64,000 bases of DNA, taken from Acidimicrobiia bacterium (GTDB lineage Bacteria; Actinomycetota; Acidimicrobiia; Spongiisociales; ZC4RG35). Each line of letters starts with the position of its first letter. The first letter of the stretch is position 1. Both the position numbers and the translations under genes were made by a program. Positions 3,689 to 27,919 of the stretch are shown in pieces. Below the pieces are notes generated by a model. That model was not told where the DNA came from. It was given only the letters and a program-made list of their open reading frames with translations, and made no database searches. The stretch is from assembly GCA_041744375.1 (NCBI GenBank), contig JBGTLA010000095.1, positions 131,018 to 195,017 of the forward strand. Reading direction: 5' to 3'.

Positions 3689-5434
3689 ATGAACGGGCCC
3701 TTTTCCAGCGGTGATTCCAGCAACCAGCCGACTCTCGACTCGGCACCCGCCACGAGCTTCGAAGGCGAGCGAGCCGTGGGAGTGAGGGAGCCCAAGTACG
3801 TGTTCGTGACCGGGGGAGTCGTGTCCAGCCTCGGCAAGGGGATTGCCGCCGCCTCGCTAGGGCGTCTCCTCGAATCTCGTGGTCTGCGGGTGGTGAACCA
3901 GAAGTTGGACCCTTACATCAACGTGGACCCCGGAACGATGAACCCCTTCCAGCACGGCGAAGTGTTCGTGACCGATGACGGCGGCGAGACCGATCTCGAC
4001 CTCGGCCACTACGAGCGGTTCACCGGCGAGAATCTGCGGCGATTGTCGAACGTCACGGCCGGGTCCGTCTACCTGTCCGTCATTCAAAAGGAGAGGCGGG
4101 GCGACTACCTGGGTGACACGGTGCAGGTCATCCCCCATGTCACCAACGAGATCAAGGATCGCATCCGCCGGCTGGGTGAAGAGGCGGACGTCGACGTCGT
4201 CATCACAGAGGTGGGTGGCACGGTGGGCGACATCGAGGGTCTCCCGTTCCTCGAAGCCATTCGCCAGTTCGGCAACGACGTGGGCCGGGCCAATGTGCTC
4301 TTCGCCCACGTGACCCTCGTTCCCTATCTCGGTACCTCCGAAGAGTTGAAGACCAAGCCGACGCAGCACTCGGTTGCCGAATTACGCAGCCACGGCATCC
4401 ATCCCGACGTGATCATCGTCAGGTCCGACCGTGAGATCGACGATGCCGTTCGCCGCAAGATCAGCTTGTTTTGTGACGTCGAAGCCAAAGCGGTGATAGC
4501 GGCGCCCGACGCCCGCGACATCTACGAGGTCCCGCTGACCCTTCACGCCGGTGGGCTCGATTCGGTGGTCTGTGACCGCCTGGGCCTCGTCACCGGTCCG
4601 GCCCGGCTCGAACCGTGGAGAGAGATGGTCAAGCGGGCGATGTCGGCCACGGAGGAGGTGACGGTAGGCATCGTCGGCAAGTACGTGGATCTCCCCGACG
4701 CTTACATGTCGGTCGTGGAGGCTCTTCGCCACGGTGCCGCCGCCCACGACGTCGCCCTCGACATCCGTTGGATACCGAGCGACGAGCTCACCGGGCTGCT
4801 GGCGCAGTCACATCTCGAAGGTGTGAACGGGATCGTGGTTCCGGGGGGCTTTGGTTACCGCGGAGTGGAAGGCAAGATCGAGTCCATCCGCCACGTCCGA
4901 GAGGCCGGGATCCCGTTCCTGGGCCTGTGTCTCGGACTGCAGTGTGCCGTCATCGAGTTCGGGCGCACCGTCCTGGGGTTGGGCGGGGCCAACAGCACGG
5001 AGTTCGATCCGTCCACGCCGCATCCGGTCATCGACCTGATGGAGTCCCAGCATGACGTGGAAGAAAAGGGCGGGACCATGCGTCTCGGCCTCTACGCCGC
5101 CAAGCTGGCCGAAGGGTCGCGGGTACGCGCCCTCTACGGCCAGGAGTTGGTGTATGAGCGGCACCGGCACAGGTGGGAGGTGAACAACCGCTATCGCAAG
5201 GATCTGGAGGCGGCCGGGTTGCGTCTGTCCGGTTTGTCACCCGACGACCATCTTGTGGAGTACGTGGAGCTCATCGATCATCCATTCTTCGTCGCCACCC
5301 AGGCCCATCCGGAGTTCCGAAGCCGTCCCGACGTACCCCACCCGCTCTTCTCGGGCCTGGTGGAGGCGGCTCGCGATCACCGGCGCCGAGCGGTCGGATC
5401 AGTCGTCGAGTCCGAGGTCGACGTCTCCGCATGA
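3689..5434 (+). CDS. pyrG: CTP synthase
   Basis: Canonical PyrG N-terminus [17 protein letters not shown]...; glutamine amidotransferase C-domain (GLCLGLQ); 581 aa. Confidence 0.95.
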
Positions 5435-12087: not shown

Positions 12088-12746
12088 ACAAGAGCGCATA
12101 CGTGGTGGCGATCGACGGTCCCGGAGGAGTCGGGAAGTCGACTGTCAGCCGGCTCGTCGCCGAGAGACTTGGGGCTGCCCATCTCGACACCGGGGCCTTC
12201 TACCGGGCCGCCACCGCAGTGGTGCTCGCCGACGGAGCAGACCCGGCCGACGACAGTGCCGTGATGCGGGCCTGGGGAAGCCGGAACATACAGCAGCGGA
12301 ACGGCCGCACGTTCGTCGACGGCCGTGACGTGTCCGAGGAAATCCGCACAGCAGAGGTCACTGAGGCTGTCTCCGTCGTGGCTGCCCATCCGCCGCTTCG
12401 AGCCGAGATGGTGGAGGCACAGCGTCGCTGGGTGGGCGAACGGGGTGTCCCGGCGGTGGTGGAAGGACGCGACATCGGCAGCGTGGTGTTCCCCGACGCG
12501 CTGGTGAAGGTATATCTCGACGCCCAACCTTCGGTACGTGCTCGCCGCCGCTCGAGAGAGACGGGGGCGGCGACGGAGTCGGTGGCGAGGGCTCTGCGCG
12601 ATCGTGACAAGATCGACTCCAGTCGCCTCGTGTCCCCCTTGGTGGCCGCGGTCGACGCCGTCGTGATCGACACCACCGATTTGTCGATCGATCAGGTCGT
12701 CTCCCGAGTGATGGAGCTGGTGAGCGCTCACCTGTCCAGGGGGTGA
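12084..12746 (+). CDS. cmk: cytidylate kinase
   Basis: GTGA overlap with the aroA stop; P-loop VVAIDGPGGVGKSTV. Confidence 0.85.
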   Translation: MNKSAYVVAIDGPGGVGKSTVSRLVAERLGAAHLDTGAFYRAATAVVLADGADPADDSAVMRAWGSRNIQQRNGRTFVDGRDVSEEIRTAEVTEAVSVVAAHPPLRAEMVEAQRRWVGERGVPAVVEGRDIGSVVFPDALVKVYLDAQPSVRARRRSRETGAATESVARALRDRDKIDSSRLVSPLVAAVDAVVIDTTDLSIDQVVSRVMELVSAHLSRG

Positions 12747-12788: not shown

Positions 12789-13835
12789 ATGGTTCAACGT
12801 GTCTTGCTGGCGGAGCCTCGCGGTTTTTGTGCCGGTGTCGAAATGGCCATCAAGGCTCTCACCTGGATGGTGCGTGTATTCGAGCCACCCGTCTACTGCT
12901 TTCACGAGATCGTCCACAACGAATGGGTGGTGCGGGCCTTCGAGCGGGTCGGTGTCGTGTTCGTCGACGATATCTTCCAGGTTCCGCAGGGGGCGCCGGT
13001 GATGTTGTCCGCGCATGGCTCTGCCCCCGAGGTGGTGGCCGGCGCGGCCTCTCGAGCCGCCGTGGTCATCGACGCCGTCTGCCCGCTCGTCACCAAGGTC
13101 CATCACGAGGTGAAACGTATGGCGGAACGTGGTTTCGACATCATCTACGTAGGCCATGAAGGCCACGACGAGGCGGTGGGGACCGTGGCGGAGGCGCCGA
13201 CTTCCATCACCCTGGTGGAGCCGGAGGTCGGTCTTCGCCAGTTCCACCCCACCGACCCTTCCAAGGTTGCCCTCCTTGCCCAGACCACACTCGGCATGCA
13301 CGAGTGGGAGGGTGTCCTGAATGCAGCCCAAGGTCGCTTCCCCGAGTTGGAAACTGCCCGCCGCTCGGACCTGTGTTATGCAACGACCAACCGTCAGGAG
13401 GCGGTGGGTCAGCTGGCGGAGAGGTGCGACCTGATCCTGGTGGTCGGCTCGGAGAACTCATCGAACACACAGGCACTGGTGCGCTATTCCATCGAGAACG
13501 GGACTCCGGCCCACCGCATCGACGATGCCGACGGGATACAAACAGGGTGGCTGGAAGCTGTCGAAGTGGTAGGGGTGACGGCGGGAGCGTCGGCGCCCGA
13601 TCATCTCGTCCAAGAGGTGATCGACCGGTTGGACCCGGCGGCCGGGTTCGAGCTGTGGCAGACCACACAAGAGGGCGAATACTTCCCCCTTCCGCCGCAG
13701 TTGCGCAGTTTCGTGGCGACGTTGAGCGCCTTGGTGGAGGCGGGAGTGACCGCCAGTGCCCCGAAGGAGAGAGGCTGGCTGGAGCGCGACAGGGAGTGGA
13801 CGGCCACCGAGGCTCTCGACCTGATCTCACGCTGA
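12789..13835 (+). CDS. ispH: 4-hydroxy-3-methylbut-2-enyl diphosphate reductase
   Basis: LLAEPRGFCAGVEMAIKAL N-terminal motif; ATG at 12789 (a GTG at 12747 immediately after the cmk stop is an alternative). Confidence 0.9.
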   Translation: MVQRVLLAEPRGFCAGVEMAIKALTWMVRVFEPPVYCFHEIVHNEWVVRAFERVGVVFVDDIFQVPQGAPVMLSAHGSAPEVVAGAASRAAVVIDAVCPLVTKVHHEVKRMAERGFDIIYVGHEGHDEAVGTVAEAPTSITLVEPEVGLRQFHPTDPSKVALLAQTTLGMHEWEGVLNAAQGRFPELETARRSDLCYATTNRQEAVGQLAERCDLILVVGSENSSNTQALVRYSIENGTPAHRIDDADGIQTGWLEAVEVVGVTAGASAPDHLVQEVIDRLDPAAGFELWQTTQEGEYFPLPPQLRSFVATLSALVEAGVTASAPKERGWLERDREWTATEALDLISR

Positions 13836-13861
13836 CGGCGCCCGCCAGTAGCGTTCCCCCC

Positions 13862-15199
13862 ATGTCGACTACTCCTCGATCCACGCGGCTGCCCATCGTC
13901 GCCGTGGTGGGACGGCCCAACGTGGGCAAATCGACCCTCGTCAACCGGATTCTGGGTCGCCGGGCCGCGGTCGTCGAGGAGAGACCGGGGGTGACACGCG
14001 ATCGGCGGCAGTTCGACGCCGACTGGGCGGGGAGAGACTTCGTCCTGGTCGACACCGGCGGATGGGAGCGCGATCCCGAAGCGGGCATCGACGAGTCGAT
14101 CCGACGCCAGGCGGAAGCGGCCATGAGTGCGGCCGACGTCGTGATCCTGGTCGTGGACGTCACCACCAGCGTGGGTGATGACGACCTGGGGGTGGTGGAC
14201 ATGCTGCGAAGGTCCGGGCTTCCGGTGGTGGTAGCGGTCAACAAGGTCGACGACCACGCTCGGGAGGGGGACGCAACCGAACTGTGGAACCTCGGTCTGG
14301 GAGAGCCCATGGCCGTGTCCGCCTTCCACGGTCGGGGAGTCGGCGATCTCCTGGATCGGGTGTTGTCGTTGCTGCCCGCGGCTGCGGCCGCTCCCGATGT
14401 CGCTGGTCCCCCCCGGGTCGCCATCGTCGGGCGGCCCAACGTTGGAAAGTCGACACTGCTGAACAGGTTGGTCGGCGAGGAGAGGGTGATCGTGTCCGAT
14501 CGGCCCGGCACGACGCGCGATCCAATCGATGTCGAGGTCGAACTCGACGGTCGACGGTATGTACTGGTCGACACGGCCGGTATCCGTCGCAAGCCCCAGA
14601 TCACCGAGGATGCCGATTTCTACGCGGTGGTCAGGGCACGAGAGGCGTTGGATCAGGCCGATGTCGCTCTCTTGCTCATCGATGGTGCCGAAGGAGTGAC
14701 CCGCCAGGACCAGCGCATCGCCGACGAGATCCTCGAGGCCGGCGCGGGTCTGGTAGTACTCGTCAACAAATGGGACGCGGTGGATCCCGACGATCGGCGG
14801 TTGCTCGAGCGCGACATCGGATCCCGACTGTCGTTCCTCGGGTGGGCTCCCATGTTGCGGGTGTCAGCCATTCGGGGAACGCGCCTCAAGTCACTGGGAT
14901 CTGCGATCGAAGTCGCTCTGGAAGGCCGCCGCCAACGGATCCCCACCGGGACGCTCAATCGTCTGGTGCGAGGGTGGACGGCCGCACATCCTCCCCCGGT
15001 CAAAAAGGGACGGCGTCCGAAGGTCCACTACGCCGTCCAGGCCGGCGTGGCCCCGCCTACGGTGGTGTTGTTCGTCTCGGGCGGGGAGCTGGGTGACGAT
15101 TATCTCCGGTTCATCGAGAACAGGATGAGAGAAGAGATCGATTTCACGGGCACACCGATCAAGGTGGTCACACGTCCGCGGAGCCGGCGTGAACCCTGA
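13862..15199 (+). CDS. der: ribosome biogenesis GTPase Der (EngA)
   Basis: Two tandem GTPase domains (VVGRPNVGKSTL occurs twice) plus a KH-like C-terminus; ATG at 13862 follows the ispH stop. Confidence 0.95.
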   Translation: MSTTPRSTRLPIVAVVGRPNVGKSTLVNRILGRRAAVVEERPGVTRDRRQFDADWAGRDFVLVDTGGWERDPEAGIDESIRRQAEAAMSAADVVILVVDVTTSVGDDDLGVVDMLRRSGLPVVVAVNKVDDHAREGDATELWNLGLGEPMAVSAFHGRGVGDLLDRVLSLLPAAAAAPDVAGPPRVAIVGRPNVGKSTLLNRLVGEERVIVSDRPGTTRDPIDVEVELDGRRYVLVDTAGIRRKPQITEDADFYAVVRAREALDQADVALLLIDGAEGVTRQDQRIADEILEAGAGLVVLVNKWDAVDPDDRRLLERDIGSRLSFLGWAPMLRVSAIRGTRLKSLGSAIEVALEGRRQRIPTGTLNRLVRGWTAAHPPPVKKGRRPKVHYAVQAGVAPPTVVLFVSGGELGDDYLRFIENRMREEIDFTGTPIKVVTRPRSRREP

Positions 15200-16085: not shown

Positions 16086-17543
16086 TCAGCGAGGTCGCGA
16101 GATCATCTGGTCGACGGGGGCGAAGTCATCCCGAAGGTAGGCGGCACCGTCTATGAACCGATGGAGTTCATCGTGAACGGCCACGACTTCGGAGCCACCG
16201 CGTCCGGCGACAGAGGCACCGATGCCTTTGACGTCGATGCGGGCGTGCGAGCCGACGAGCACGAAGTTCCCACCCCCCTCGCCTCCCAGATAGTGAGGTG
16301 GGGCCAGGACGGCCGTGTGGTCGAAGACGGCGTCGATCGTGGCGGTGGCCGCCCGAGCGAATCGCAAGTCTCCGTAATCGATCAGATTGAGGAGATAGAT
16401 CCCCTCCGGTCCCAGGCGGCGGGCGACTTCGGTGACGAATTCCAGGGTTGTCAGATGCCACGGCACCGACAATCCGCTGAAGGCGTCGCCCATGATGAGG
16501 TCGGCCCACTCGAGCGGAACGTTCTGTAGCGAGCGGCGGGCGTCGTCGACGATCACCGTCGCCTCGGGGTCAAGCCCGAGGCGGGAGTGCCCGATGTCGA
16601 CCAGCAACCGGTCTATCTCCAGCACCACATGCTCTGTGCCGGGTCTGACGGCGTCCAGGTAGGCGCTGAAGGTGAACCCGCCTCCTCCGATGGACACGGC
16701 CCGCAGGGGCTCACCAGGCGCCGTGTGCTCGATCACGTCGCCCATGACCTGGGCGTACCTGAACTCGAGATGGGTCGGGTCGACGAGATCGACGTAGCTG
16801 TTGCGCACACCGTCGAGCCACAAGATCCGCCCGCTCGATCGGTCTGGGTCGATCTCGATGTCGGCGCAGTGATAGGTGGTCTCGTATTCGCACGGCCCGC
16901 CAAGCAAAACCAGTGCCGCAGCCAGTGCCACACTCCCCCCGCCGGCCCGGAGACGACCCCTCCCATGATGGCTCCAGAAGCCCAAACCCGCGACTATCAG
17001 AGCGGCCCCGACGGCGATAATGATCGGGCGCGTGGGGAAAGCTGCGATGAGGACAAAACCGGTGGTGAAAGTCCCGAAGATGGCCCCGGCGGTGCCGATG
17101 GCCGAGTACGACCCGACCACCGAGCCGGTCTCGTCCAGGCTGGCCAGTCGCAGCTTCACCACCACCGGGGGAACGGCCGACAGCACGGCGGCGGGAGCGA
17201 AGAAACCAAGCGTGGTGATGACCACGATGGCCAGCGGCCCGGCCGACGTTGAGGCCGGGCCGACCACATCGACGATCAAGGGGGATGCCAGCGCGGTGAG
17301 GCCCCCGGCTACCAGGAGGGGCCCCACCAGCCGGGAAGGATCGCCCCGGTCTGCTGCTGCTCCCCCGGCCCATGCACCCACGGCGATGCCGGCCAGGATC
17401 ACCCCGATGACGCCGGTGAAGACTTCGAGACTAACCCCGAGGTAAGGAGCCAGGAGCCGCTGAGCGAGGATCTCCAGTACCAGCACCGCCGCCGAGGTGG
17501 AGAAGACGAGAAGTCGAGCGGTCAGCTGTGACATGGGGGCCAC
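16086..17543 (-). CDS. fused polytopic membrane domain / spermidine synthase-like (PABS) protein
   Basis: N-terminal ~200 aa are highly hydrophobic (multi-TM). The C-terminal spermidine-synthase fold includes VSIGGGGFTFSAYL and DLIMGDAF. Confidence 0.7.
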   Translation of the reverse strand: MAPMSQLTARLLVFSTSAAVLVLEILAQRLLAPYLGVSLEVFTGVIGVILAGIAVGAWAGGAAADRGDPSRLVGPLLVAGGLTALASPLIVDVVGPASTSAGPLAIVVITTLGFFAPAAVLSAVPPVVVKLRLASLDETGSVVGSYSAIGTAGAIFGTFTTGFVLIAAFPTRPIIIAVGAALIVAGLGFWSHHGRGRLRAGGGSVALAAALVLLGGPCEYETTYHCADIEIDPDRSSGRILWLDGVRNSYVDLVDPTHLEFRYAQVMGDVIEHTAPGEPLRAVSIGGGGFTFSAYLDAVRPGTEHVVLEIDRLLVDIGHSRLGLDPEATVIVDDARRSLQNVPLEWADLIMGDAFSGLSVPWHLTTLEFVTEVARRLGPEGIYLLNLIDYGDLRFARAATATIDAVFDHTAVLAPPHYLGGEGGGNFVLVGSHARIDVKGIGASVAGRGGSEVVAVHDELHRFIDGAAYLRDDFAPVDQMISRPR

Positions 17544-18460: not shown

Positions 18461-18507
18461 GTCGGGCCGGGGAGATTCGAACTCCCGACCTCTTGACCCC
18501 CAGTCCA
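18461..18507 (-). repeat. partial tRNA-Pro copy (anticodon loop to 3' end) = attL of integrated element
   Basis: The minus-strand read GACUGGGGGUCAAGAGGUC-GGGAG-UUCGAAU-CUCCC-CGGCCCGAC is identical or near-identical to the 3' half of the tRNA at 27760..27834. The T-stem carries compensatory changes, and the 19-bp core GACCTCTTGACCCCCAGTC is identical. Confidence 0.7.
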
Positions 18508-18740: not shown

Positions 18741-19208
18741 TTAGACGGCAATCCGGGCCAGCTCGAGGATCTCGGCCCGCTCATTGGCGCGGTGGTCACG
18801 GCAGTAGATCGCGTCAAAGTCGAGGCGAACGTCGATGGCCTTCCCGCAAGTCGGGCAGCGAGCCGTCGTCGCCATGGCGTGAGGCAGAGACATTCGGCGG
18901 TCTCGCGCCCATTCGGCGACGGCATGATGCCTGCGCCTGGCGGCAAGCTCGCCCACAGCCATGACCACCATCGCCGCCAGGTCGAGCGGCGACTCCTCCC
19001 ACAACCAGAACCGCACTTCTAGGTGAGTGAGCCCGCCGTCGACACCGGACAGCAACCGCCCGGCCGGATACTCGCGAGCCCAGGCGACCACGTCCTCAGA
19101 GGTCCGACAGTCCGCCAAACCGGCGGCGATTAGCTGAGCCTCCTCGGGACCGACCCAACGTGACACGCCTTCCTCGAAGGTCGGGGATTTGGTCATCGGT
19201 CGGGGCAT
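18741..19208 (-). CDS. hypothetical protein with C-terminal zinc-ribbon-like motif
   Basis: The C-terminal ~155 aa of track ORF 18741..19517 look protein-like (CPTCGKAIDVRLDFDAIYCRDHRANERAEIL); the N-terminal part of the track ORF is Arg/Pro-rich GC artefact. Last gene of the element operon. Confidence 0.45.
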   Translation of the reverse strand: MPRPMTKSPTFEEGVSRWVGPEEAQLIAAGLADCRTSEDVVAWAREYPAGRLLSGVDGGLTHLEVRFWLWEESPLDLAAMVVMAVGELAARRRHHAVAEWARDRRMSLPHAMATTARCPTCGKAIDVRLDFDAIYCRDHRANERAEILELARIAV

Positions 19209-19576
19209 CACGACCACCGGGCCCTGGCCGCCTTGCGCGCCCTTTCGGAGGCCGAGAGGTTGTCCCACTCCGAGACCTCGGCCTGCGCCTCGGGAAGCCT
19301 TATCCGGCTTAAGAGTTGGGCGAGGAGAGACCGCTGCAGACGCAGCTCGACGACAGCCGGGTGAGTGATCGGAGTTCCGGCCGCGTTCGTCGTGGTCAGC
19401 GGCGCAACGGCCACTTCGGCCTCGAGGCGGGCCACGAGATCGGCGGTCCGAGCGGCCTCTTCGAGCACTTTTAACTCGTCTTCGCGCCACAAATAGCCCC
19501 GTTGCAGGCGCCTCCACAACGCCTTTCCGGCCCGCCCCAACCCCAGAGGAGCCCTAAGTGGCTTGGTATCGGCCAC
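19208..19576 (-). CDS. terminase small-subunit-like protein (P27-family-like), tentative
   Basis: 122 aa; the pattern ...KALWRRLQRGYLWREDELKVLEEAARTADLVARLEAEV...THPAVVELRLQRSLLAQLL resembles P27-family TerS. Position matches the terS slot of PICI packaging modules. Confidence 0.45.
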   Translation of the reverse strand: MADTKPLRAPLGLGRAGKALWRRLQRGYLWREDELKVLEEAARTADLVARLEAEVAVAPLTTTNAAGTPITHPAVVELRLQRSLLAQLLSRIRLPEAQAEVSEWDNLSASERARKAARARWS

Positions 19577-19692: not shown

Positions 19693-20523
19693 TCACTGCC
19701 GGGCCGCCTCCATCTCGCGGGTCCGTATCTCGAGGTCGAGGCGGTCACGCCGGTTGTCCTCGTGACCCTTGTGCTTTTGCTCCTGCGTTTGCCGTGACCG
19801 TGTGCGACTGGCGGCGGCGGTTGCGGTGGCCTCGGCCTCGCTGGGGGTGGCGAGGTGGAGCCGGAAGCCGGCCTCGATGAGGGCCAGCCATTTGCGGCCC
19901 AGGTGGGCGGCCCGGTCTAGGTCGTCTTGGGTGAGGTCCTTGCCCGTGATCCACCAGGTTGGCGATTCCTCCCGCGGACCGAACCGATACGTTTCGGCGA
20001 GCGAGGAACGTACTCGGGCGATGGCGGTGAGCTCGGCGGTGGCGGTGGCCCGACGGGTGTGGGTGTCGGTGAGGGTGGGGTCGGCGAGGGTGTGGCGGGC
20101 TCGGGTGGGGAGGGCGACCCCGGTGGTGGCTGCCAGGTCGTCGGCGGCGGTGGCGAAGCGGGGCTGTAGTTCAGAGATGATGGCGTCGCCGTGGTCTCGG
20201 ACCGCTCGGGCGGTGGCCTTGGACAAGGCGGCGACAACCTGGCGGTGGATTGCCTCAGCGGCTTCCTTTGCCGTCTGGGCGCGAGCCGTATCGAGGAATC
20301 GGTCAGCGGCGTCGTCGGGCTCGAGGGTCCCGTCGATGATGGCGGCGGCGAGGTCCTCAGCGGGCGAGACGGCGCTGGCCGCGGAGATGGCGGCTGAGAT
20401 CTTGGCGAGCCGGTCAAGGCCGGGCACCTCGATGTCGAGGTCGTCGAAAGTGGCGAGGGCACGGGCGGGGTCGATCGGGTGGAACATGAGTGGCCTTTCA
20501 GAATCGGTTGCGGGGGATGCCAA
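19693..20523 (-). CDS. hypothetical protein (element accessory gene)
   Basis: 276 aa with ordinary amino-acid composition and a coiled-coil C-terminus; follows the 108-aa gene in the same operon. Confidence 0.5.
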   Translation of the reverse strand: MASPATDSERPLMFHPIDPARALATFDDLDIEVPGLDRLAKISAAISAASAVSPAEDLAAAIIDGTLEPDDAADRFLDTARAQTAKEAAEAIHRQVVAALSKATARAVRDHGDAIISELQPRFATAADDLAATTGVALPTRARHTLADPTLTDTHTRRATATAELTAIARVRSSLAETYRFGPREESPTWWITGKDLTQDDLDRAAHLGRKWLALIEAGFRLHLATPSEAEATATAAASRTRSRQTQEQKHKGHEDNRRDRLDLEIRTREMEAARQ

Positions 20524-20824
20524 GTTTTTCGTGGATGGCTCGTTCGAGTGGGTCGCCGTTGAGCGCTAGCGCCGGCGGTTCGGATCCTGATCGGAGCGGG
20601 GGTGATGGTGCCTGTGTTTCCTCGTCGTACCTTTCGGGGCCTGGCCTCGGTGGGACCTTGGCGGCGAGGAGGGCAGCGAGCCCGTCGCTCGCTGGGGCGA
20701 AGGTGGCGGCGAGTTCGTCGGCCTCCTCAACGGTTTCCGCTAGGTGCCTGAGGCTGGCGGCTTCGGGGAGACCGAGGCCGTGCCGGTGGGCGATCTCAGC
20801 GGCCTCTATTGCAGTGATTCCCAT
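20498..20824 (-). CDS. hypothetical small protein
   Basis: Only the C-terminal 108 aa (from MGITAIEAAEI...) of track ORF 20498..21388 look genuine; the upstream part is Pro/Arg/Ser low-complexity. Confidence 0.4.
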   Translation of the reverse strand: MGITAIEAAEIAHRHGLGLPEAASLRHLAETVEEADELAATFAPASDGLAALLAAKVPPRPGPERYDEETQAPSPPLRSGSEPPALALNGDPLERAIHEKLGIPRNRF

Positions 20825-21201
20825 ACGGTCCTCTTCTCGACGAAGGTGTCCAAGTCTGTGCGTCGGATCATCACCCTTCGCCCCACCCGTACCTCGGGGA
20901 GGCTCCCGTTTCGGCGGAGGCGGTCGAGGTGGGAGGTCGAAACCCCCAGCACCTCGGCCGCTATCCGTCGGCTTAGGAGCATGGCGATGCCACTTGCACC
21001 ATCTTGGGGGACTTCGTTGGTCTCGGCTCTGGTCTGAGGAGCCGTGACGACTGAGGCCGACTCCTGATGACGAAGAGCCCGGATCAGTTGTGCCAGTTCG
21101 GTGGTGGGTGGGTGGCCTCGGGCGAGTCGGTCTGAGGCACCGTGGAGCAGCGTCTCCACCATCTCGGCTCGGAGGCGGTCGCTCACGTCGAGGAGGATCA
21201 C
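20806..21201 (-). CDS. helix-turn-helix DNA-binding protein (excisionase/MerR-like HTH)
   Basis: C-terminal HTH MLLSRRIAAEVLGVSTSHLDRLRRNGSLPEVRVGRRVMIRRTDLDTFVE. The GTG start is GTGA-coupled to the upstream 71-aa gene; a shorter product from the ATG at 20982 is possible. Confidence 0.5.
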   Translation of the reverse strand: MILLDVSDRLRAEMVETLLHGASDRLARGHPPTTELAQLIRALRHQESASVVTAPQTRAETNEVPQDGASGIAMLLSRRIAAEVLGVSTSHLDRLRRNGSLPEVRVGRRVMIRRTDLDTFVEKRTVWESLQ

Positions 21202-21413
21202 AACGGCCGCCAGATGGACTCTTCGCCTTGGGCGGCGACCAGGGCATCCCAGAACGCTTGGCGATGCTCCTCACGTGAGGGGATGGTGGCGTGGCGTCTG
21301 CGCCGGCCGTTGCCGTTGGGACCACCATTTGCGCAGAAGTGGTAGAGCTCGATGACATGCGGCGGGACGTTGTGCCACTCTCGGCCACATGCTGGGCAAT
21401 GGCGGGAGGTCAT
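21198..21413 (-). CDS. small zinc-ribbon protein, first gene after the iteron region
   Basis: MTSRHCPACGREWHNVPPHVIELYHFCANGG... (71 aa). Its stop is translationally coupled to the next gene. Confidence 0.4.
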   Translation of the reverse strand: MTSRHCPACGREWHNVPPHVIELYHFCANGGPNGNGRRRRHATIPSREEHRQAFWDALVAAQGEESIWRPL

Positions 21414-21713
21414 ATCAGGGGACACGGTTGGGACACAGTTCTCTTTTTTCAGCTTCGATGGCGGCACCGATGCGGGGCACCGTGTCCCGTGTCCCTCCTT
21501 AGAGAGGGGGAGGGACACGGTTGAACACGGCTATGTCCCATGACCGTGTCCCTGCTTGGGACACGGTTGGGACACGGGGGACACGGTTGCTGTTTCGTGC
21601 TTGGTTGCTGCGTTTCCGGTTGGTTGGTTGGGACACGGTTGGGACACGGTTTCGGCGGGTGGCTGGTAATTCGGTTTTTTCCGACACGGTGTCGTGTCCC
21701 TGGTCGGGACACG
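21414..21713. repeat. iteron array, putative replication origin of the element
   Basis: At least 12 copies of GGGACACGG(TTG) in both orientations (e.g. 21419, 21476, 21509, 21535, 21558-21589, 21630-21652, 21682-21710), interspersed with AT-richer tracts. Located immediately 3' of the helicase gene. Confidence 0.6.
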
Positions 21714-22790
21714 CTATTTCCCATCATCTTCCAGCCCTTCGCTCTTCTCGATGAAGGTCTCGTAACCCTTGTCGGTGAGGTAGTGGGCGTGGGCTGAGCC
21801 TTGCTTCTCCATGCGGACATACCCGTCTGTGATCATGGCGGCGATGGCCGAGTCGATGAGTTCGCCCTTGCCGCCGGCGTCTCGGATGGATCGTTTCGAT
21901 GATCCGGGCGCGCCGTCGAGGTATTGGGCGATGCGTTGGCGGACTCCGTAGTCGTTGGCGACGGCGTCGGTGGTCACTTGGTAGGTGACGCCGCCGTCGG
22001 GCCACGCGGTGAGTTTGACGGTGGCGGCCAGGTCGCCGGGTGAGTGACCGCGGACGTAGCCGGGCCGATCTTTGGCGACTCGCACCGAGACGATTCCCTC
22101 GACGGGGTCTCCGAGGTAGGCGCGGTGCACCTTGCGTATCGCGGTGACGTCGTAGGAGGCGCCGTCGGTGCCGGCCTTCTTGTGCTGCGATCCGATCGCC
22201 CACCCTTTGCGCCCTTCGGTGGATTTGGTCTGGTGGTCGATCACCGCGACGGCTGGGCCGGTAGCGGCGATCAGTTTGGGGATCCTGCGAATCCACTCGG
22301 CGGTGTCGGGTGTCGAGTTGGGGTCGAGATCTTCGATATTCATCGACTCGGACACTCCGTCGACCACGACCAGGGCCGGCTTGGTGGCGTCGAGAGCCTC
22401 GAACAGCTCGGCGCGCTGGTCGTCGCCTAGCGTTTCGTCGGGGCGCATGTAGACGAAGCGATTGGGGTCGGTGATGACCTCCTCGGGGACACCCAACGCC
22501 TGCAGGCGGGATTTGATGGAAGCCGGATGGTCCTCGAAATCGACATACGCGCAGTTGCCGCCGTCCAAAAGAATCTGCGCCACGGCGATGAGGAGGACCC
22601 ACGTCTTGTGCGATTCGGACTCACCCTGGAACCAGTGGACCCGCCCGGGGTAGATGAGCCCGACGTCGTCCACCCGCATGAAGATGGTGGCTTCCTCGAC
22701 GGTCATCCCGACGAGGGACATGTCGATTGGTGTCCAGGTGGTCTCCGGTGGGGCGGTGCGAGCCTCGTCGTCGAGGGGTGGCACCGTCAT
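21714..22790 (-). CDS. RepA/DnaB-like AAA_25 ATPase (replicative helicase-like)
   Basis: RecA-fold ATPase with Walker-A-like GESESHKTW (the Gly before Lys is replaced by His) and a Walker B (LVVVDGVSE); ATGA-coupled to Prim-Pol. Confidence 0.6.
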   Translation of the reverse strand: MTVPPLDDEARTAPPETTWTPIDMSLVGMTVEEATIFMRVDDVGLIYPGRVHWFQGESESHKTWVLLIAVAQILLDGGNCAYVDFEDHPASIKSRLQALGVPEEVITDPNRFVYMRPDETLGDDQRAELFEALDATKPALVVVDGVSESMNIEDLDPNSTPDTAEWIRRIPKLIAATGPAVAVIDHQTKSTEGRKGWAIGSQHKKAGTDGASYDVTAIRKVHRAYLGDPVEGIVSVRVAKDRPGYVRGHSPGDLAATVKLTAWPDGGVTYQVTTDAVANDYGVRQRIAQYLDGAPGSSKRSIRDAGGKGELIDSAIAAMITDGYVRMEKQGSAHAHYLTDKGYETFIEKSEGLEDDGK

Positions 22791-23647
22791 GCCCGCCTCC
22801 TTAGGTCTCGGCTGTCTCTGAGCGCCTTGGCGGCTGCAGAGAGATCGCCGTCATGTTCGAGGACAGCCCAAGCCCGAAACCGCGTGTAGCCGACCGGGCG
22901 GTCCGGTTCGGTGACCTCAAAAGCAGTGTTCGTGGAGTAGACGAAGAGACAGTCGTGGCGGACGGTGGCCGAGATCGGTGCGGTGGCGGTGGGGTGCCGC
23001 CACTTCTCGCCGGCATGGTCGACCGCGACCCATCCGAAAGGCTCGAGAACCTCGCGCCAAGTGGTCGAAGCTGTGAAAGCGTCCGCTGGCGAATCTCCGT
23101 CTATGGCCCACTGTCTCGGCTTCGGCCGCTTTGGCGGCGGCGGTGGAGCGAGCAAGAGCTGGAGCCGGAGCGGAGCCTCGCCTATGGGGATGCGCGGGTC
23201 GACCCAGGTGTACGGTCGGGCGCTATCGGGATGAATCGAGGGCGGCAGCACGACGTAGCCGGAATGCGTCTTCACGTCGACGCCGCGTGGGAGACGCCTT
23301 GTGTAGATGTTGCCGCCAGGATGCCGCCAGTAGTAATGGCGGCCACCATCACCACGACCCGACAGGGCGGTGAGCGTGTCCGGGAGCTCCCCTACTGCAT
23401 CAATGAGATCTCTGCCGACCGCGGGGTTGGTTCGTGGATCTGTGTCAAGAACGAAACACCCCGCGGGGACCCGGCCGCCGATGTTGGCGTTTGGGTATCG
23501 CTTCCACCATGTGGCGATGACATCGAGATCGGTGGTGGCGTCGAGGACACCGTTACCGCCGTTCCGCTTCGGGATAGCGGGCACTTTCCCGCGGAGCGGG
23601 AAAATCTCCCATCCTTTTCGGGCGTAGTCGAGAGCGTGGTCGATCAT
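22787..23647 (-). CDS. bifunctional DNA primase/polymerase (Prim-Pol) domain protein
   Basis: The N-terminus ALDYARKGWEIFPLRGKVPAIPKRNGG...LDATTDLDVIATWW...NANIGGRVPAGCFVLDTD matches the Prim-Pol N-terminal domain; start at MIDHAL (ATG ~23647). Confidence 0.7.
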   Translation of the reverse strand: MIDHALDYARKGWEIFPLRGKVPAIPKRNGGNGVLDATTDLDVIATWWKRYPNANIGGRVPAGCFVLDTDPRTNPAVGRDLIDAVGELPDTLTALSGRGDGGRHYYWRHPGGNIYTRRLPRGVDVKTHSGYVVLPPSIHPDSARPYTWVDPRIPIGEAPLRLQLLLAPPPPPKRPKPRQWAIDGDSPADAFTASTTWREVLEPFGWVAVDHAGEKWRHPTATAPISATVRHDCLFVYSTNTAFEVTEPDRPVGYTRFRAWAVLEHDGDLSAAAKALRDSRDLRRRA

Positions 23648-24006
23648 TTCAACCTCTGCCAAACCTGATTGAGCGCCTGGCTTGCTCGGCCGTTTCCGCC
23701 GGCGTCGGGATGCCACACTCTCTGAAGCGCCTTCCACGTCGCAGCGCGTATCTCGGCCGGGATTCGCGAGAACACGATCTCCAGCGCATCCTCAAGCGGA
23801 CCGTCGACGACCCCGTTGAGTCGGTCGACCAGACGTTGAACGTCCTCCGCGAATCGGAAAGGCACCCGCCAGCATTTCAGGCCAGGGTCCCACCTCGCCG
23901 CGGGCATGGCCTTGGCGTGGTCCTTGTCCTCAAACGCCACCCACAGACCAATATCACCGTCGCCGAGGTTCCTGAACGTGGCAGGACGCCGATTAGAGTG
24001 CGTCAT
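23644..24006 (-). CDS. DUF5710-like N-terminal domain fused to a C-terminal J-domain (HPD motif)
   Basis: N-terminus: LWVAFEDKDHAKAMPAARWDPGLKCWRVP. C-terminus: ATWKALQRVWHPDAGGNGRASQALNQVWQRL, i.e. J-domain helix II plus the HPD motif. Confidence 0.5.
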   Translation of the reverse strand: MTHSNRRPATFRNLGDGDIGLWVAFEDKDHAKAMPAARWDPGLKCWRVPFRFAEDVQRLVDRLNGVVDGPLEDALEIVFSRIPAEIRAATWKALQRVWHPDAGGNGRASQALNQVWQRLK

Positions 24007-24157
24007 GTCGTCGTCCTGTGAGCAGCTTGAGGGCGACTGGTGGCACCGTGCCCGCCCGCGGTGCGAACGGTGGAGGGGCCCGCTTCGGCGGGCTCCTCGT
24101 CTTGTAGACCAAGCACGGCCAGGAGCGGGGCGCGTGGGGTGATCGTGGTGGTGGTCA

Positions 24158-25078
24158 TCACGCCACCTCCCCGGAGATCAACTTCCGGATATCACCGAGG
24201 ATGGTCTTCTCGGACTCCTCTGCGGCGAGAGTGGAGTTCCACATCTCGGGGTCGTCGACAAGATCGAGAAGTGCCTGTTTCAACCGTTCCCGCAGGATCG
24301 GTGCAGGCAACGCCTCAACTTCAACGGCTTGTGGGACCAGTCCCTCTAATCGGCAATGGGCCAGGAATTTGGCGTAGTTGACGTCGTTCTTGTTGAGATC
24401 GTGGCTGACGAGATCGCCTTGGCGCACGTCATCGGGGGTGATCGCCACCCGGACGAACTCGATGTCGACCAGGTCCTTCGAGTAGCGGCGTAGACGTTCC
24501 TCCAGGGACCGAGCAATCGCCAACCCCGATGGGTCCCAATCACCTACGTAGAGGATGGTGACGGGCTTCCCGATGGTCTTGTACGCCACCGCCGCGTTGT
24601 AGGCGAAGGTCTTGGGAGCTTGGCCTTTGCATGGGAAGAGACCGATCCCGTAAGGGCGTGTGATCGGGTCGAGGACGCCAGCGATGGAATCGGACTCGCA
24701 CCACACTTCTACTCGCCGGGGTTGAGACGCCCACAGGTTTCGCCGGTACGACTCCTGCCAGCGAGCGAACGCGTCCTCGATGTCCTCGTACATGGTGTCG
24801 ATGCGGACGGACCGAGACGAGTCGGTGATCCAACCCCAGGGCAGAACTTCGTCTTCGCGGAGCTTCCCTAGCTCCCGGCAGACCATCTTGTAGTTGCGTC
24901 GCTTCGTCGCGCCAGTGTCCTTGGCCCACAGCACGGCGATACCGGAGTAATAGACGTGGCGGACGTTGCACGGCTGATTGCGTTCCACCAGCTCGTAGAT
25001 GGCATCCCGGAAGTGGGCCATCTCGGCCTTGGTCCGTCGAGCAGACGGCGGATTCTGAGACGTAGAACTAGCGGGCAT
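24158..25078 (-). CDS. Spo11/TopoVI-A-like protein (putative CAP-domain tyrosine + Toprim E...DxD)
   Basis: Putative catalytic Tyr motif NVRHVYYSG. Toprim acidic residues VWCESDS and ILYVGDWDPSG are spaced ~87 and ~65 aa apart, matching TopVIA/JetD-type spacing. 306 aa. Confidence 0.45.
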   Translation of the reverse strand: MPASSTSQNPPSARRTKAEMAHFRDAIYELVERNQPCNVRHVYYSGIAVLWAKDTGATKRRNYKMVCRELGKLREDEVLPWGWITDSSRSVRIDTMYEDIEDAFARWQESYRRNLWASQPRRVEVWCESDSIAGVLDPITRPYGIGLFPCKGQAPKTFAYNAAVAYKTIGKPVTILYVGDWDPSGLAIARSLEERLRRYSKDLVDIEFVRVAITPDDVRQGDLVSHDLNKNDVNYAKFLAHCRLEGLVPQAVEVEALPAPILRERLKQALLDLVDDPEMWNSTLAAEESEKTILGDIRKLISGEVA

Positions 25079-25268
25079 CTACGGACTCCTCCTCCGATTC
25101 GATCCCCAGCACGTCGAAAAGACGAGCACGCGAGAGGAGCAGGCGACGGCCGACCTTGATCACCGGGACGCCGGCCAGGTCGCCGGACTGGGCCTCGGCG
25201 TAGGCGGTGTTGCGGCTGACACCGAGCAGGAGGGCGGCTTCGGGGATTGTGATGGTGGCGGACGTCAT
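25068..25268 (-). CDS. excisionase-like HTH protein (Xis/AlpA-like)
   Basis: 66 aa: ITIPEAALLLGVSRNTAYAEAQSGDLAGVPVIKVGRRLLLSRARL. Confidence 0.6.
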   Translation of the reverse strand: MTSATITIPEAALLLGVSRNTAYAEAQSGDLAGVPVIKVGRRLLLSRARLFDVLGIESEEESVDAR

Positions 25269-25271
25269 TGC

Positions 25272-25505
25272 TCACTGACCCCCTTCGGTCACGAGGCGCC
25301 GTAGGTCCGCTAGGGCTTGGGCGTAGGCGCTGCGAACCCGGCCGGAGGGGTTGCGGTCTCCCGTTTCCCACTTGGCGACGGCTTGGCGGGTGACGCCTAC
25401 GACGTCGGCTACGTCTTGGAGAGTGAGTCCGGCTGCCACGCGCAGAGCTCGCCGCGCTGCGGGGGGCGGAAGGCGCTTCGCATTGGCGATAGTCTCGACA
25501 TCCAT
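25272..25505 (-). CDS. XRE-family HTH transcriptional regulator
   Basis: LTLQDVADVVGVTRQAVAKWETG, the canonical XRE HTH; divergent from the + strand regulator/int operon. Confidence 0.65.
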   Translation of the reverse strand: MDVETIANAKRLPPPAARRALRVAAGLTLQDVADVVGVTRQAVAKWETGDRNPSGRVRSAYAQALADLRRLVTEGGQ

Positions 25506-25570: not shown

Positions 25571-26128
25571 GTGGCGCAGCAAAATAACCCCGAGGGCGGA
25601 TGGTCCCTGAAGGTCAACTTCAAGATGGCGTTTCCGGACCCATTCATCATCCATCGGGGCATGGTCTATCCAAGGGTCCTGTCGGCGATGTGGCGGCGAG
25701 AAGATGGGCTCCAGCTCGACATCGACATCGAGGTGGAGGCTGAGGCTGGGGCGAGAGTTCGGCGCTTCACAGTCACAGGTGCCGACATGATTGACTCGGC
25801 GGACTTTCGGCAGCCGGTTCAGTCGATGGCGAAGCGAGCGGTCGCAGCGATGGCGGCGGAGCCCGATGGGCTTGGCAATGCGACGTTCCCACCGTCTCAG
25901 CCGGCGTCGGTGGTGGTTGGCCGGGTGACGAGCCGTACTAATGACGCTCGGCTAACGCGGGTTGCCGACCTTTATGGGCAGGCTCTCAGCGACGGGGAGC
26001 CAGTGACCTCGTTGATCGAAAAGGAGGAACACGTGAGCCAGTCAACGGCGTATGGACTGATATCGCGGGCGCGTAAGGCGGGATTCCTCCCGCCATCGAG
26101 ACCAGGAAGGAAGGCGACAAGCGAATGA
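25571..26128 (+). CDS. putative regulator co-transcribed with int (Stl-like position)
   Basis: GTG start with a GAGGAG RBS; C-terminal HTH-like segment HVSQSTAYGLISRARKAGFL; its stop overlaps the int start (ATGA). Confidence 0.45.
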   Translation: MAQQNNPEGGWSLKVNFKMAFPDPFIIHRGMVYPRVLSAMWRREDGLQLDIDIEVEAEAGARVRRFTVTGADMIDSADFRQPVQSMAKRAVAAMAAEPDGLGNATFPPSQPASVVVGRVTSRTNDARLTRVADLYGQALSDGEPVTSLIEKEEHVSQSTAYGLISRARKAGFLPPSRPGRKATSE

Positions 26129-27309
26129 GCGACAAGCGTCGACCCAGAGGAACCGGATCGGTTCGGGAGTGGAACGGTCGTGTGCAAGCCCGTTACACGT
26201 TCTTTGATGCACAGGGGCATCGACGCGAACGATCGAAGCTCTTCGACACCAGGACAGAGGCCCGTGGTTGGCTCACAGATCGCCTTGCGGAGGTCGCAGG
26301 CGGTTCTGTGGCCGATGCCAGGTCGATCACCCTAGGCGAGTACCTGGGTCACTGGCTGGGCAGCCTGGGAATGGCACAACTCGAAGCGGCGACATTGTCG
26401 TGGTACCGCTCCGCGGTGGAGCGTCACATCGTCCCTCAGATCGGCCACGTCCGCCTTGACAGGATCACGCCGGTGATGGTGGAGGCGTTCCTATCGGAGC
26501 GGGCCTCGAGCGGCCGGCTGCGGCGACCAGGCGACGACGAGACAACCCCGAAGGGGCTCGGGCCGTCCAGTGTCCGACGTCTCACCGTGACCTTGCATAA
26601 GGCACTTGACGCGGCCGTGCGCAAGGGAATGCTGGCCCGGAACCCGGTCGACTCCGCTGACAAACCCAAGATGCCCGCCTCAGACGTGACTCTCGACGTG
26701 TGGGCACCCGACGAGATAGCAGCGTTCCTTCAGGCGACAAGACAGCATCGCTTGGCGGCCGTCTGGCGTACAGCGGCCATGACCGGGCTGAGACGGTCGG
26801 AGGTGTGCGGACTCCAATGGGGCGACCTCGACCTAGAGACCGGACGCCTATCGGTCCGGCGTGCGATCGTCTCAGTGGATGGTCGGCCTCATGTGAAGCC
26901 ACCGAAGACAGCGAAGTCTCGACGTACGGTCGAGCTTGACGCCGGGACCGTGGCGATACTGCGGGAGTGGCGGAAGTCACAGCTCGAGGAACGGCTGCGA
27001 GCTGGGGAGGTGTGGGAAGCGGGGGAGTGGGTCGTGGCCGACGAGCTAGGCCGGTTCCTCCGTCCCGATCATGTGGGACGCCTGTTCTCCCGTCTGGTCG
27101 CCTCAGCGGGGCTCAGGCCGATCACGTTCCGCAAGTTGCGCCACAGTCATGCCACGGCGCTCCTGGTGGCCGGCGAGGCTCCCAAGGTCGTGCAGGAAAG
27201 GCTCGGGCACGCTTCGATCACGATGACGATGGACATCTACTCGGCAGTCCTGCCCAATATGCAACGAGACGCAGTCGAACGGTTGGCGTCGATGATGGAG
27301 GCCCAGTAG
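26125..27309 (+). CDS. int: tyrosine-type site-specific integrase
   Basis: N-terminal SAM-like domain and a C-terminal catalytic domain (LRHSHATALLVAGEAPKVVQERLGHASITMTMDIYSAVLP). Transcribed toward the tRNA-Pro 3' end. Confidence 0.9.
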   Translation: MSDKRRPRGTGSVREWNGRVQARYTFFDAQGHRRERSKLFDTRTEARGWLTDRLAEVAGGSVADARSITLGEYLGHWLGSLGMAQLEAATLSWYRSAVERHIVPQIGHVRLDRITPVMVEAFLSERASSGRLRRPGDDETTPKGLGPSSVRRLTVTLHKALDAAVRKGMLARNPVDSADKPKMPASDVTLDVWAPDEIAAFLQATRQHRLAAVWRTAAMTGLRRSEVCGLQWGDLDLETGRLSVRRAIVSVDGRPHVKPPKTAKSRRTVELDAGTVAILREWRKSQLEERLRAGEVWEAGEWVVADELGRFLRPDHVGRLFSRLVASAGLRPITFRKLRHSHATALLVAGEAPKVVQERLGHASITMTMDIYSAVLPNMQRDAVERLASMMEAQ

Positions 27310-27701
27310 TGAAGCGCAGAGACGACTTAGATCCAGAGCTCGAAGAACTAGCCCGGACGCTTGAACGGTTCGACGGTGTGACGGTCCAGGGTGGTCGCCT
27401 CGACAATGCCGAATGGTCGGTCATGTTCGCTGCGGCGGTCGAGGATGGTCGCCCCACCGTGGCAGCGTGGCACGGCGTTGAGTTCGTGGCCTGGGCCGTT
27501 CGGGATTTTCGGCTTGCTGGTGAGGGTGACGTGAGCCTGGTGGTCTCGGCCATCCCGCCCATGTTGAACGAGCCGGGCTATGGGGTGACGTTCTTTCTGT
27601 CCGCTCGGCGCTCGTCGAGCCACGAGCGAGTGAATGCGGAGGCGTTTGCCCTGGGGCTCAGCGCTCATGCGGCTGAAAGGGGCTTGATAGTGGAATCTTA
27701 G
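27309..27701 (+). CDS. hypothetical protein between int and attR
   Basis: GTG start overlapping the int TAG stop; 130 aa with no recognisable domain. Confidence 0.35.
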   Translation: MKRRDDLDPELEELARTLERFDGVTVQGGRLDNAEWSVMFAAAVEDGRPTVAAWHGVEFVAWAVRDFRLAGEGDVSLVVSAIPPMLNEPGYGVTFFLSARRSSSHERVNAEAFALGLSAHAAERGLIVES

Positions 27702-27759: not shown

Positions 27760-27834
27760 TTTCTGCCGGTCGGGCCGGCGGGATTCGAACCCACGACCTC
27801 TTGACCCCCAGTCAAGCGCGCTACCAAGCTGCGC
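27760..27834 (-). tRNA. tRNA-Pro (anticodon GGG)
   Basis: Hand-folded cloverleaf: acceptor CGGGCCG/CGGCCCG; D-arm GCGC-AGCUUGGUA-GCGC; anticodon arm CUUGA-CUGGGGG-UCAAG (U33, GGG, G37); variable loop AGGUC; T-arm GUGGG-UUCGAAU-CCCGC; discriminator A; CC encoded. Confidence 0.85.
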
Positions 27835-27919
27835 CACGGCCCGTGTCGGGGGTATCGTAGCGGTTCGCCCGGCGGCTGTGTTGACGGCGGCCCGGGCGGT
27901 ACCCCGCCCACGGAGGCTC

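Follow-up and report, generated by a model that had tools for sequence, protein, structure and literature searches.

The DNA analysed here is a 64,000-nt stretch from an Acidimicrobiia bacterium (contig JBGTLA010000095.1), referred to below as the window, with a G+C content of about 65% throughout. It contains an island of about 9.3 kb integrated in a tRNA-Pro gene, and within this island a dense array of short repeats lies between a gene for a P-loop ATPase of the AAA_25 family and the next genes of the same strand. As judged from sequence comparison, the array is most probably the replication origin of the island, a satellite element resembling the phage-inducible chromosomal islands (PICIs).

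Repeat array behind an ATPase gene

The 9-mer GGGACACGG occurs in 10 exact copies in the window, every one of them inside 21419-21649. In dinucleotide-preserving shuffles, the mean is 2.4 copies per window, and none of the 100 shuffles reaches 10. The 8-mer core GGGACACG has 12 exact copies at 21419-21713 and one other in the 64 kb, at 12629. A further copy in the array, at 21430, carries one mismatch to the core, and about three degenerate copies are recognized by eye (21523-21530, 21534-21541 and 21684-21691). The 13 good copies are divided between the strands, nine on plus and four on minus, so the claim of the original prediction that about 12 copies lie in direct and inverted orientation within 300 bp is borne out by motif counting. 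Their start-to-start spacings are irregular (7, 9, 11, 11, 11, 13, 13, 24, 33, 51, 52 and 52 bp), being 7-13 bp within blocks and 24-52 bp from block to block.

When one mismatch is allowed, the motif is not more frequent over the whole window than in shuffles, and the signal is therefore a local cluster rather than a dispersed repeat. It is scarcely credible that the cluster arose by chance or is a host-wide dispersed repeat of the repetitive extragenic palindromic type or a degenerate CRISPR array, unrelated to the island. The high G+C content of the host does raise the background for G/C-rich words, and the window-wide one-mismatch count is what chance would give, but 12 of the 13 exact cores fall in 295 bp, and homologous arrays stand behind the same gene in unrelated hosts, as described below. 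In the window and the related loci, the repeat is thus not a dispersed motif. A CRISPR array had already been dismissed in the original prediction, and rightly so, as the unit is 8-9 bp, the orientation is mixed, the spacing varies from 7 to 52 bp, and no cas genes are present in the island.

Both genes flanking the array are on the minus strand. The ATPase open reading frame (ORF) stops at 21714, where the last repeat overlaps its stop codon, and the ORF after the array starts with an ATG at 21413, 5 nt from the first repeat. The array is therefore placed immediately 3′ of the putative helicase gene and 5′ of the downstream genes, as had been predicted, and this location agrees with published descriptions of the origins of Staphylococcus aureus pathogenicity islands (SaPIs) and other PICIs (PMC9371898; PMC6092414). 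The first downstream ORF, of 71 aa, has no recognizable Shine-Dalgarno sequence at 21405-21413 (CCCCTGATATG). Its homologue in the related locus L005 is translationally coupled to an additional 97-aa ORF, and other relatives have GGAGG ahead of their first downstream gene. The arrangement in the window may be the result of a deletion.

The array is built of several blocks (Table 1). Its overall G+C content is 60% versus 65% for the window. Two short A/T-rich tracts stand out for low stability, 21438-21453 ranking in the lowest 0.16% and 21666-21683 in the lowest 0.44% of the window's 20-mers. The spacer between the inverted repeat sets is 10 nt long and not AT-rich; the A/T-rich tracts sit to the sides. 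Rfam gave no family at gathering score over the array region, only sub-threshold chance matches, and an RNA element was rejected. No sigma-70-type promoter pattern was found in the array or elsewhere in the island, which is weak evidence as the scan did not include actinobacterial promoter types.

The ATPase has 358 aa. Its AlphaFold2 model (mean predicted local distance difference test score of 83) has a RecA/KaiC-like core, and its matches in the PDB are only RecA and KaiC, with KaiC and RecA as the best Foldseek hits and RecA as the sequence-profile hit. The C-terminal part of the model has winged-helix topology, comprising helices 281-293, 299-306 and 309-321 and a hairpin at 325-338. The third helix, residues 309-321 (21828-21866), is the predicted recognition helix. 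For AAA_25 proteins there was ‘no known function described yet’ in 2022 (PMC8965321).

Arrays and predicted recognition helices in related loci

Homologues of the ATPase were traced to contigs in genomes, metagenomes and IMG/VR, and each locus was scored over the 300 bp that follow the ATPase stop codon, taking the 8-mer with the most copies on the two strands together, with a threshold of at least 5 copies. This threshold is reached by 32 of the 54 evaluable genome and metagenome loci and by 27 of the 40 IMG/VR loci, so that the array position behind the ATPase gene is kept in 59 of 94 related loci. The background is 0.54% of 2,589 windows from the same loci. The locus counts are underestimates because L003 was mis-scored owing to a frame problem and the unit of L056/57 is only 7 bp. 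In most loci, the cluster after the ATPase gene is the densest repeat cluster of the whole locus of about 13 kb. Hosts named for the homologous loci are Actinomycetota (Acidimicrobiales and other metagenome-assembled genomes, and Knoellia).

The module is not confined to satellites, as far as these sequences tell. Many IMG/VR contigs with it are 40-75 kb, which is full phage size, and the satellite-sized IMG/VR contigs had no terminal overlaps when checked for circularity. In the isolated phage MinS1 the ATPase gene is followed by 9-10 copies of CCTCGTCC, and in the 7.9-kb Streptomyces plasmid p-XQ-29-C a homologue is followed by eight copies of CCTGCCC and a palindrome. The plasmid has no other gene annotated as a replication protein, by annotation only, six of its nine genes being hypothetical and not scanned. 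Thus, of the predicted satellite origin, the occurrence on a satellite-like island holds, while a restriction to satellites does not. Plasmid pKRAD02 of Kineococcus was considered as a further case and rejected, having no iteron array after its 891-aa ATPase and its densest 8-mer in the coding C-terminus.

Clustered short 8-bp repeats resemble the TraB recognition sequences of Streptomyces plasmids and ParR-type centromeres. The array could accordingly be a centromere-like partition site or a conjugative clt/TraB-recognition locus, and p-XQ-29-C, which carries an FtsK/SpoIIIE gene, lends this some colour. We consider it highly improbable, however. No island ORF matches FtsK/SpoIIIE or TraB in Pfam and PHROG searches, and no ParA, ParM or ParB-type gene was found in the island; in the plasmid, the array follows the ATPase gene directly, with the FtsK/SpoIIIE gene 1.8 kb downstream of it; and phage contigs carry the array too.

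The repeat itself varies from element to element (CCGTGTCCC, CCGTGCCC, CCTGCCC, CCGTGGCG, CCTCGTCC, CCTCGCCC, CCCCGTCC, GCGTGACCC, CCGGTTCC and others). When nine close arrays are aligned, about 10 sites are homologous, each element having its own motif at them (TGTCCC, TGCCC, CTGCCC or TGGCG). All nine are laid out alike. Behind the stop codon come three copies in direct and one in inverted orientation, followed by one or two more, a palindrome with TATAG or TTTAG at its centre, a tract rich in A and, before the next gene, two final copies. The window array consists of this common core (21414-21586) and 127 bp extra (21587-21713).

Motif change is accompanied by change in the predicted recognition helix. 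Among 10 close homologues aligned over about 350 columns, residues 309 and 311 alone, at the start of helix 3, separate the class with CGTGTCCC from the others. After three cases a prediction was fixed that ‘GKGE’ at the start of helix 3 goes with CGTGTCCC and other residues go with other repeats. It held in all three loci for which it was definite, P0009 keeping the motif and P0010 and P0014 having other motifs. P0014 (GNSD) and P0005 (GNND) have CCGTGCCC in common, and P0012 (GRGE), for which no definite prediction was made, keeps CGTGTCCC. Residues 308-311 read KGEL in the window protein, NNDT in P0005 and GRET in P0003; the array of L052 is of the TGCCC type (CCGTGCCC) and that of L003 of the TGGCG type (CCGTGGCG). 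Motif class does not follow phylogeny: P0003 has another motif at 82% identity to the window protein, whereas P0008, P0009 and P0012 share the window motif at 62-64%.

These patterns suggest that the C-terminal winged helix of the ATPase, not Prim-Pol, is likely the reader of the repeats. Prim-Pol is less likely because L055 and L056/57 have no Prim-Pol gene and retain the array. The HTH_17 (helix-turn-helix) protein was compared as well. In same-motif elements it is unrelated or only 36% identical over 36 residues, and between the window and L003 it is 62-71% identical though the motifs differ; in these comparisons, HTH_17 similarity does not track the motif.

The same evidence bears on a purely regulatory alternative, in which the ATPase winged helix or another regulator of the island would bind the array, and the array would act as a transcriptional operator or roadblock governing whether transcription runs on from the replication genes into the packaging genes behind them, with no origin role. 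Its two final repeats abut the start codon of the next gene, and in relatives they stand directly before the ribosome-binding site of that gene; the island has several helix-turn-helix (HTH) proteins; and with no separate promoter detected for the downstream genes, these must be read through the array. Against this, the first downstream genes differ among elements of the same array architecture, while the ATPase upstream is always kept, and HTH_17 similarity does not follow the motif. Besides, 13-16 sites in both orientations with a central palindrome far exceed the needs of known operators, and p-XQ-29-C has the same arrangement and, by annotation, no second replication gene. An operator alone is therefore unlikely. 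It is possible that the array serves both as an origin and in regulation, which is compatible with the origin interpretation.

Several observations on the related loci stand apart from these questions. L051 (P0004), a Logan contig of 10,135 bp from SRR13588938, has a fused Prim-Pol-ATPase gene, with the ATPase part 80% identical, and a CGTGTCCC array. It has an identical 25-nt sequence at both ends and no tRNA, and may represent a related element of 10.1 kb in circular form, excised or episomal, or else be a contig with attachment repeats at its ends. L003, the closest relative with a different iteron, has a large terminase (TerL_ATPase) and lies between two tRNA-Ala(ggc) calls (4337-4411 and 13822-13899) separated by about 9.4 kb; thus, close relatives use other tRNA targets and other packaging genes. 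On one contig of Janibacter terrae (NZ_BCUV01000006.1), L013 (471107-484087) and L014 (515604-528584), 44 kb apart, have identical match statistics and ORF translations and encode a 769-aa relative of the ATPase, which suggests a duplicated element. With four copies of CCGTCCCC, they fall below the repeat threshold.

The MinS1 record (L103, MZ923504.1, ‘Microcystis phage MinS1’) has, in the 4.1 kb examined, 71% G+C, an Lsr2-family protein and an actinobacterial-type ATPase with the array. Such features would not be expected in a phage that infects a low-G+C cyanobacterium such as Microcystis, and they suggest that the host assignment deserves a check.

Two further observations are of practical use. 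‘Hypothetical proteins’ of 64-139 aa have been called wholly over arrays by gene-calling programs and in one GenBank entry (L003:9053-9472, L055:3199-3408, L058:3964-4176 and, in MinS1, L103:3625-3819, UIU47017.1); these spurious calls are probably not genes. Some short-read metagenome contigs with close homologues end shortly past the ATPase stop codon, at the first repeats (8 bp past it in L001, 23 bp in L053 and 20 bp in L054). Arrays seem to break de Bruijn assemblies, so that such islands would often be split at the putative origin.

Gene content of the island

The features of the island and the array are listed in Table 1. The plus-strand genes at 25571-27701 form an operon divergent from the minus-strand HTH_3 gene. 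Homologues of the 306-aa phrog_6247 protein, 303-313 aa long, are found at the same place in L005 and L058. The displaced host half of tRNA-Pro and the half supplied by the island differ at about five positions in the T-arm and acceptor region, and the reconstituted tRNA-Pro is thus chimeric; ARAGORN still calls it.

Table 1. Positions of the array, its parts and the other features of the island in the window.
Feature	Position	Strand	Remarks
Left attachment repeat (attL), displaced partial tRNA-Pro 3′ half	18461-18506	-	20-nt exact core at 18486-18505; original terminator hairpin next to it
158-aa ORF, last island gene	18741-19217	-	weak HNH and zinc-ribbon matches
Small terminase subunit, 122 aa	19208-19576	-	phrog_1496, E 6e-17
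276-aa ORF	19693-20523	-	no family match
131-aa HTH_17 protein	20806-21201	-	
71-aa Cys-rich ORF, first after array	21198-21413	-	75% identity to L005 ORF
Whole iteron array, putative origin	21414-21713	.	12 exact and one near-exact GGGACACG cores, about three degenerate
Two tandem copies, GGGACACGGTT and GGGACACAG, 11 bp apart	21419-21438	+	homologous to final two sites in arrays of relatives
A/T-rich tract AGTTCTCTTTTTTCAG (sense strand CTGAAAAAAGAGAACT)	21438-21453	.	candidate unwinding element; relatives have an A-rich tract at the matching position
Central inverted set	21480-21530	.	two minus copies (21480-21495), 10-nt spacer, exact plus copy (21512-21520), degenerate copy (21523-21530); inverted arms of 12 nt, 21487-21498 and 21509-21520, match perfectly; the homologue in relatives is the TATAG/TTTAG-centred palindrome
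One minus copy (21544-21552) facing three tandem plus copies (21558, 21569, 21578)	21544-21586	.	its homologues in relatives are the three direct copies and the single inverted copy behind the helicase stop codon
Window-specific extension, 127 bp	21587-21713	.	unaligned in 8 relatives; repeat-free spacer (21587-21629), two tandem copies (21630-21649), second A/T-rich tract (21666-21683), then degenerate, inverted and direct copies (21684-21714) up to the helicase stop codon
AAA_25 / RecA-fold P-loop ATPase, 358 aa, putative replicative helicase and initiator	21714-22790	-	Pfam AAA_25, E 7e-13
Predicted C-terminal winged-helix domain, residues 281-338	21777-21950	-	AlphaFold2 model
Prim-Pol, 286 aa as called in L001	22787-23647	-	Pfam Prim-Pol, E 8e-36; PHROG primase/polymerase matches; longest ORF extends to 23737
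DUF5710	23644-24006	-	
51-aa ORF	24003-24158	-	
306-aa protein	24158-25078	-	phrog_6247, labelled ‘DNA topoisomerase’, E 1e-36; no Pfam family
HTH_17, excisionase-like	25068-25268	-	
HTH_3, Cro/cI-like	25272-25505	-	
185-aa ORF	25571-26128	+	candidate repressor, no HTH match
Tyrosine integrase	26125-27309	+	
130-aa ORF	27309-27701	+	
tRNA-Pro(ggg)	27768-27843	-	3′ half (27768-27813) is the right attachment repeat (attR)

The island has the marks of a PICI: a size in the range of about 9-15 kb, a terminal integrase, specific attachment repeats, and the order of divergent regulators, xis, pri, rep, ori and terS, without structural or lysis genes. The published layout is int, regulators, xis, pri, rep, ori and terS (PMC6092414; PMC10085698). 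No island ORF matches capsid, tail or lysis genes in Pfam and PHROG searches. A 485-aa ORF at 16086-17543, outside the attachment repeat, was considered as a large terminase like that of L003, which would make the island longer. It was rejected, showing no similarity in BLASTP and no Pfam or PHROG match, and is treated as host DNA.

An actinomycete integrative and conjugative element (AICE) requires a Tra gene with an FtsK/SpoIIIE domain (PMC3218068). Because the FtsK/SpoIIIE gene is missing, the island is not an AICE, and the AICE/clt reading was rejected.

The terminase gene raises another possibility, namely that the small terminase of the island recognises the array as its packaging site (pac or cos-binding region). 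Terminase small subunits can recognise arrays of short repeats, and the island encodes one together with a weak HNH match. The array, however, is 1.8 kb from terS, and it is also present where no terS was detected (the Streptomyces plasmid) and in loci of the L055/L056 type. Its motif covaries with the recognition helix of the ATPase, and the window and L005 have the same motif with TerS proteins only 36% identical. A packaging site is thus very unlikely.

Putative origin and comparison with known systems

The prediction of a satellite replication origin gains support from what surrounds the array, Prim-Pol and AAA_25 genes upstream in a tRNA-bounded island with integrase and terS and no structural genes, and from comparison, in that the array position is widely kept and the motif changes in concert within an array and together with the recognition helix. 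We conceive that replication would proceed as follows. After derepression and excision, the minus-strand operon would express Prim-Pol and the RecA-fold ATPase, whose C-terminal winged helix would read the 8-9-bp iteron CCGTGTCCC with its recognition helix. Protomers bound to tandem and inverted iterons could form rings on both sides of the central inverted set. The rings would then be next to the A/T-rich tracts, where DNA would be melted, and the ATPase would load itself as the replicative helicase while Prim-Pol primes synthesis. Replicated DNA could later be packaged via the small terminase with a helper phage.

A number of points weigh against this interpretation. With AAA_25 a family without known function in 2022, even the helicase activity is inferred from a RecA/RepA-like fold. 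Of the unusually AT-rich stretches in the original prediction, the two short unstable tracts exist, but 20-mers of comparable instability are found elsewhere in the island and the array is still 60% G+C; the tracts are only 16-18 nt, with no long central AT-rich region as in SaPIs. As for the reader of the repeats, the covariation test is low in power: when labels were assigned at random, all discriminating columns came to lie in residues 306-316 in 9 of 210 cases (p of about 0.04), because this hypervariable segment varies more than any other part of the protein. In a comparison of equal subsets, the HTH_17 protein had no fewer discriminating columns than the helicase. The discriminating-column test was downgraded as proof of the reader after these permutation and equal-subset controls. 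In addition, the p-XQ-29-C ATPase differs at its C-terminus, yet its repeat is identical to that of L056. About 40% of the related loci are below the 8-mer threshold, and the next gene begins right beside the last two iterons, which makes a regulatory role possible.

Beyond this island, we lean slightly towards a more general view. Self-loading initiator-helicases may include one more class, of RecA fold, made up of AAA_25 ATPases that carry a C-terminal winged helix; it would have converged with the AAA+ Reps of SaPIs and P4. Phages, satellites and small plasmids of actinobacteria may commonly use the module as their replicon. A few residues where the recognition helix begins (308-311 here) would determine its iteron specificity, in a code that is readable from covariation and could be reprogrammed. 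As far as the literature was covered, it has no account of an iteron origin, either for AAA_25 proteins or for PICI-like elements of actinobacteria; the coverage was incomplete, and this is absence of evidence only.

On this interpretation, a branch of AAA_25, for which no function was known in 2022 (PMC8965321), would acquire a testable one as origin-binding initiator-helicases. Prim-Pol, the ATPase and a 200-300-bp origin would make up a compact candidate replicon of about 2.3 kb for high-G+C Actinomycetota, and natural specificity variants might yield mutually compatible vectors. One paper regards the way in which PICI origins are laid out as unique to these islands (PMC6092414). A PICI-like layout has apparently been reached here with a different helicase fold and is common to phages, satellites and a plasmid, which bears on how satellites acquire replication modules.

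SaPI origins have 6-12 iterons directly 3′ of rep, in opposite orientations around a melting region, and SaPI Rep is a helicase whose C-terminal winged helix binds the iterons and which loads itself without a separate loader (PMC9371898). The pri-rep-ori region in SaPIs and other PICIs replicates autonomously (PMC6092414). Compared with SaPIbov1, SaPI1, SaPI5 and EcCICFT073, the island is alike in having the array directly 3′ of the helicase gene, with many short iterons in both orientations and of element-specific sequence. The primase gene precedes rep or is fused to it, as it is in L051; the surroundings are likewise made up of int, regulators, pri, rep, ori, interference or packaging genes, and terS; and for the helicase here the AlphaFold2 model predicts a winged helix at the C-terminus.

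On the other hand, SaPI Reps are AAA+ helicases of superfamily 3 or 6, while the ATPase here is of the RecA-fold AAA_25 family, so that the likeness to SaPI origins is analogy, not homology. The iteron unit is 8-9 bp rather than 5-6 bp. SaPIs have at least two opposed iterons per side around an AT-rich melting region, whereas the inverted sets here are separated by a 10-nt spacer. The host is also different, being of a high-G+C actinobacterial lineage, as the relatives of the island and the 65% G+C likewise suggest; candidate PICIs in Mycobacterium have been reported from genome scans only.

The alpha protein of satellite phage P4 unites primase, helicase and a C-terminal origin-binding domain in one polypeptide, and this domain recognises octamer repeats that occur in direct and inverted orientation. 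Both PMC6092414 and reference B69 of PMC8965321 mention the alpha protein and its ori. Unlike the system here, the alpha helicase belongs to superfamily 3 and has no sequence relationship to the AAA_25 protein, and the P4 repeats are split between ori and the distant crr.

AICEs of the SLP1 type have tyrosine integrases at tRNA genes and a gene for Prim-Pol (SCO4617) with ‘RepPP’ (SCO4618) behind it (PMC3218068). They resemble the island as actinobacterial integrative elements with a tRNA target and with Prim-Pol before a second replication gene, and a Streptomyces plasmid with FtsK/SpoIIIE carries a homologue of the ATPase with an array. They differ in that the island has a small terminase instead of an FtsK/SpoIIIE transfer gene, and the AICE paper, in which the word ‘iteron’ does not occur, describes no iteron origin for such elements (PMC3218068). 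Classical iteron plasmid origins of the Rep_3/RepA type have direct iterons of 17-22 bp, in contrast to 8-9 bp in both orientations here, and no Rep_3-type protein is among the Pfam matches of the island.

The IncQ plasmid RSF1010 is alike in pairing a RecA-fold hexameric helicase of the RepA type with a dedicated primase (RepB′) at an iteron origin. Its iterons are recognised by a separate protein, RepC. RepA and AAA_25 have been grouped among related RecA-like families (PMC8965321); the putative kinship to RepA comes from this family grouping, the top Foldseek matches of the ATPase being KaiC and RecA. Different from RSF1010, the island shows no sign of a gene for a separate initiator, and the predicted winged helix is fused to the ATPase itself.

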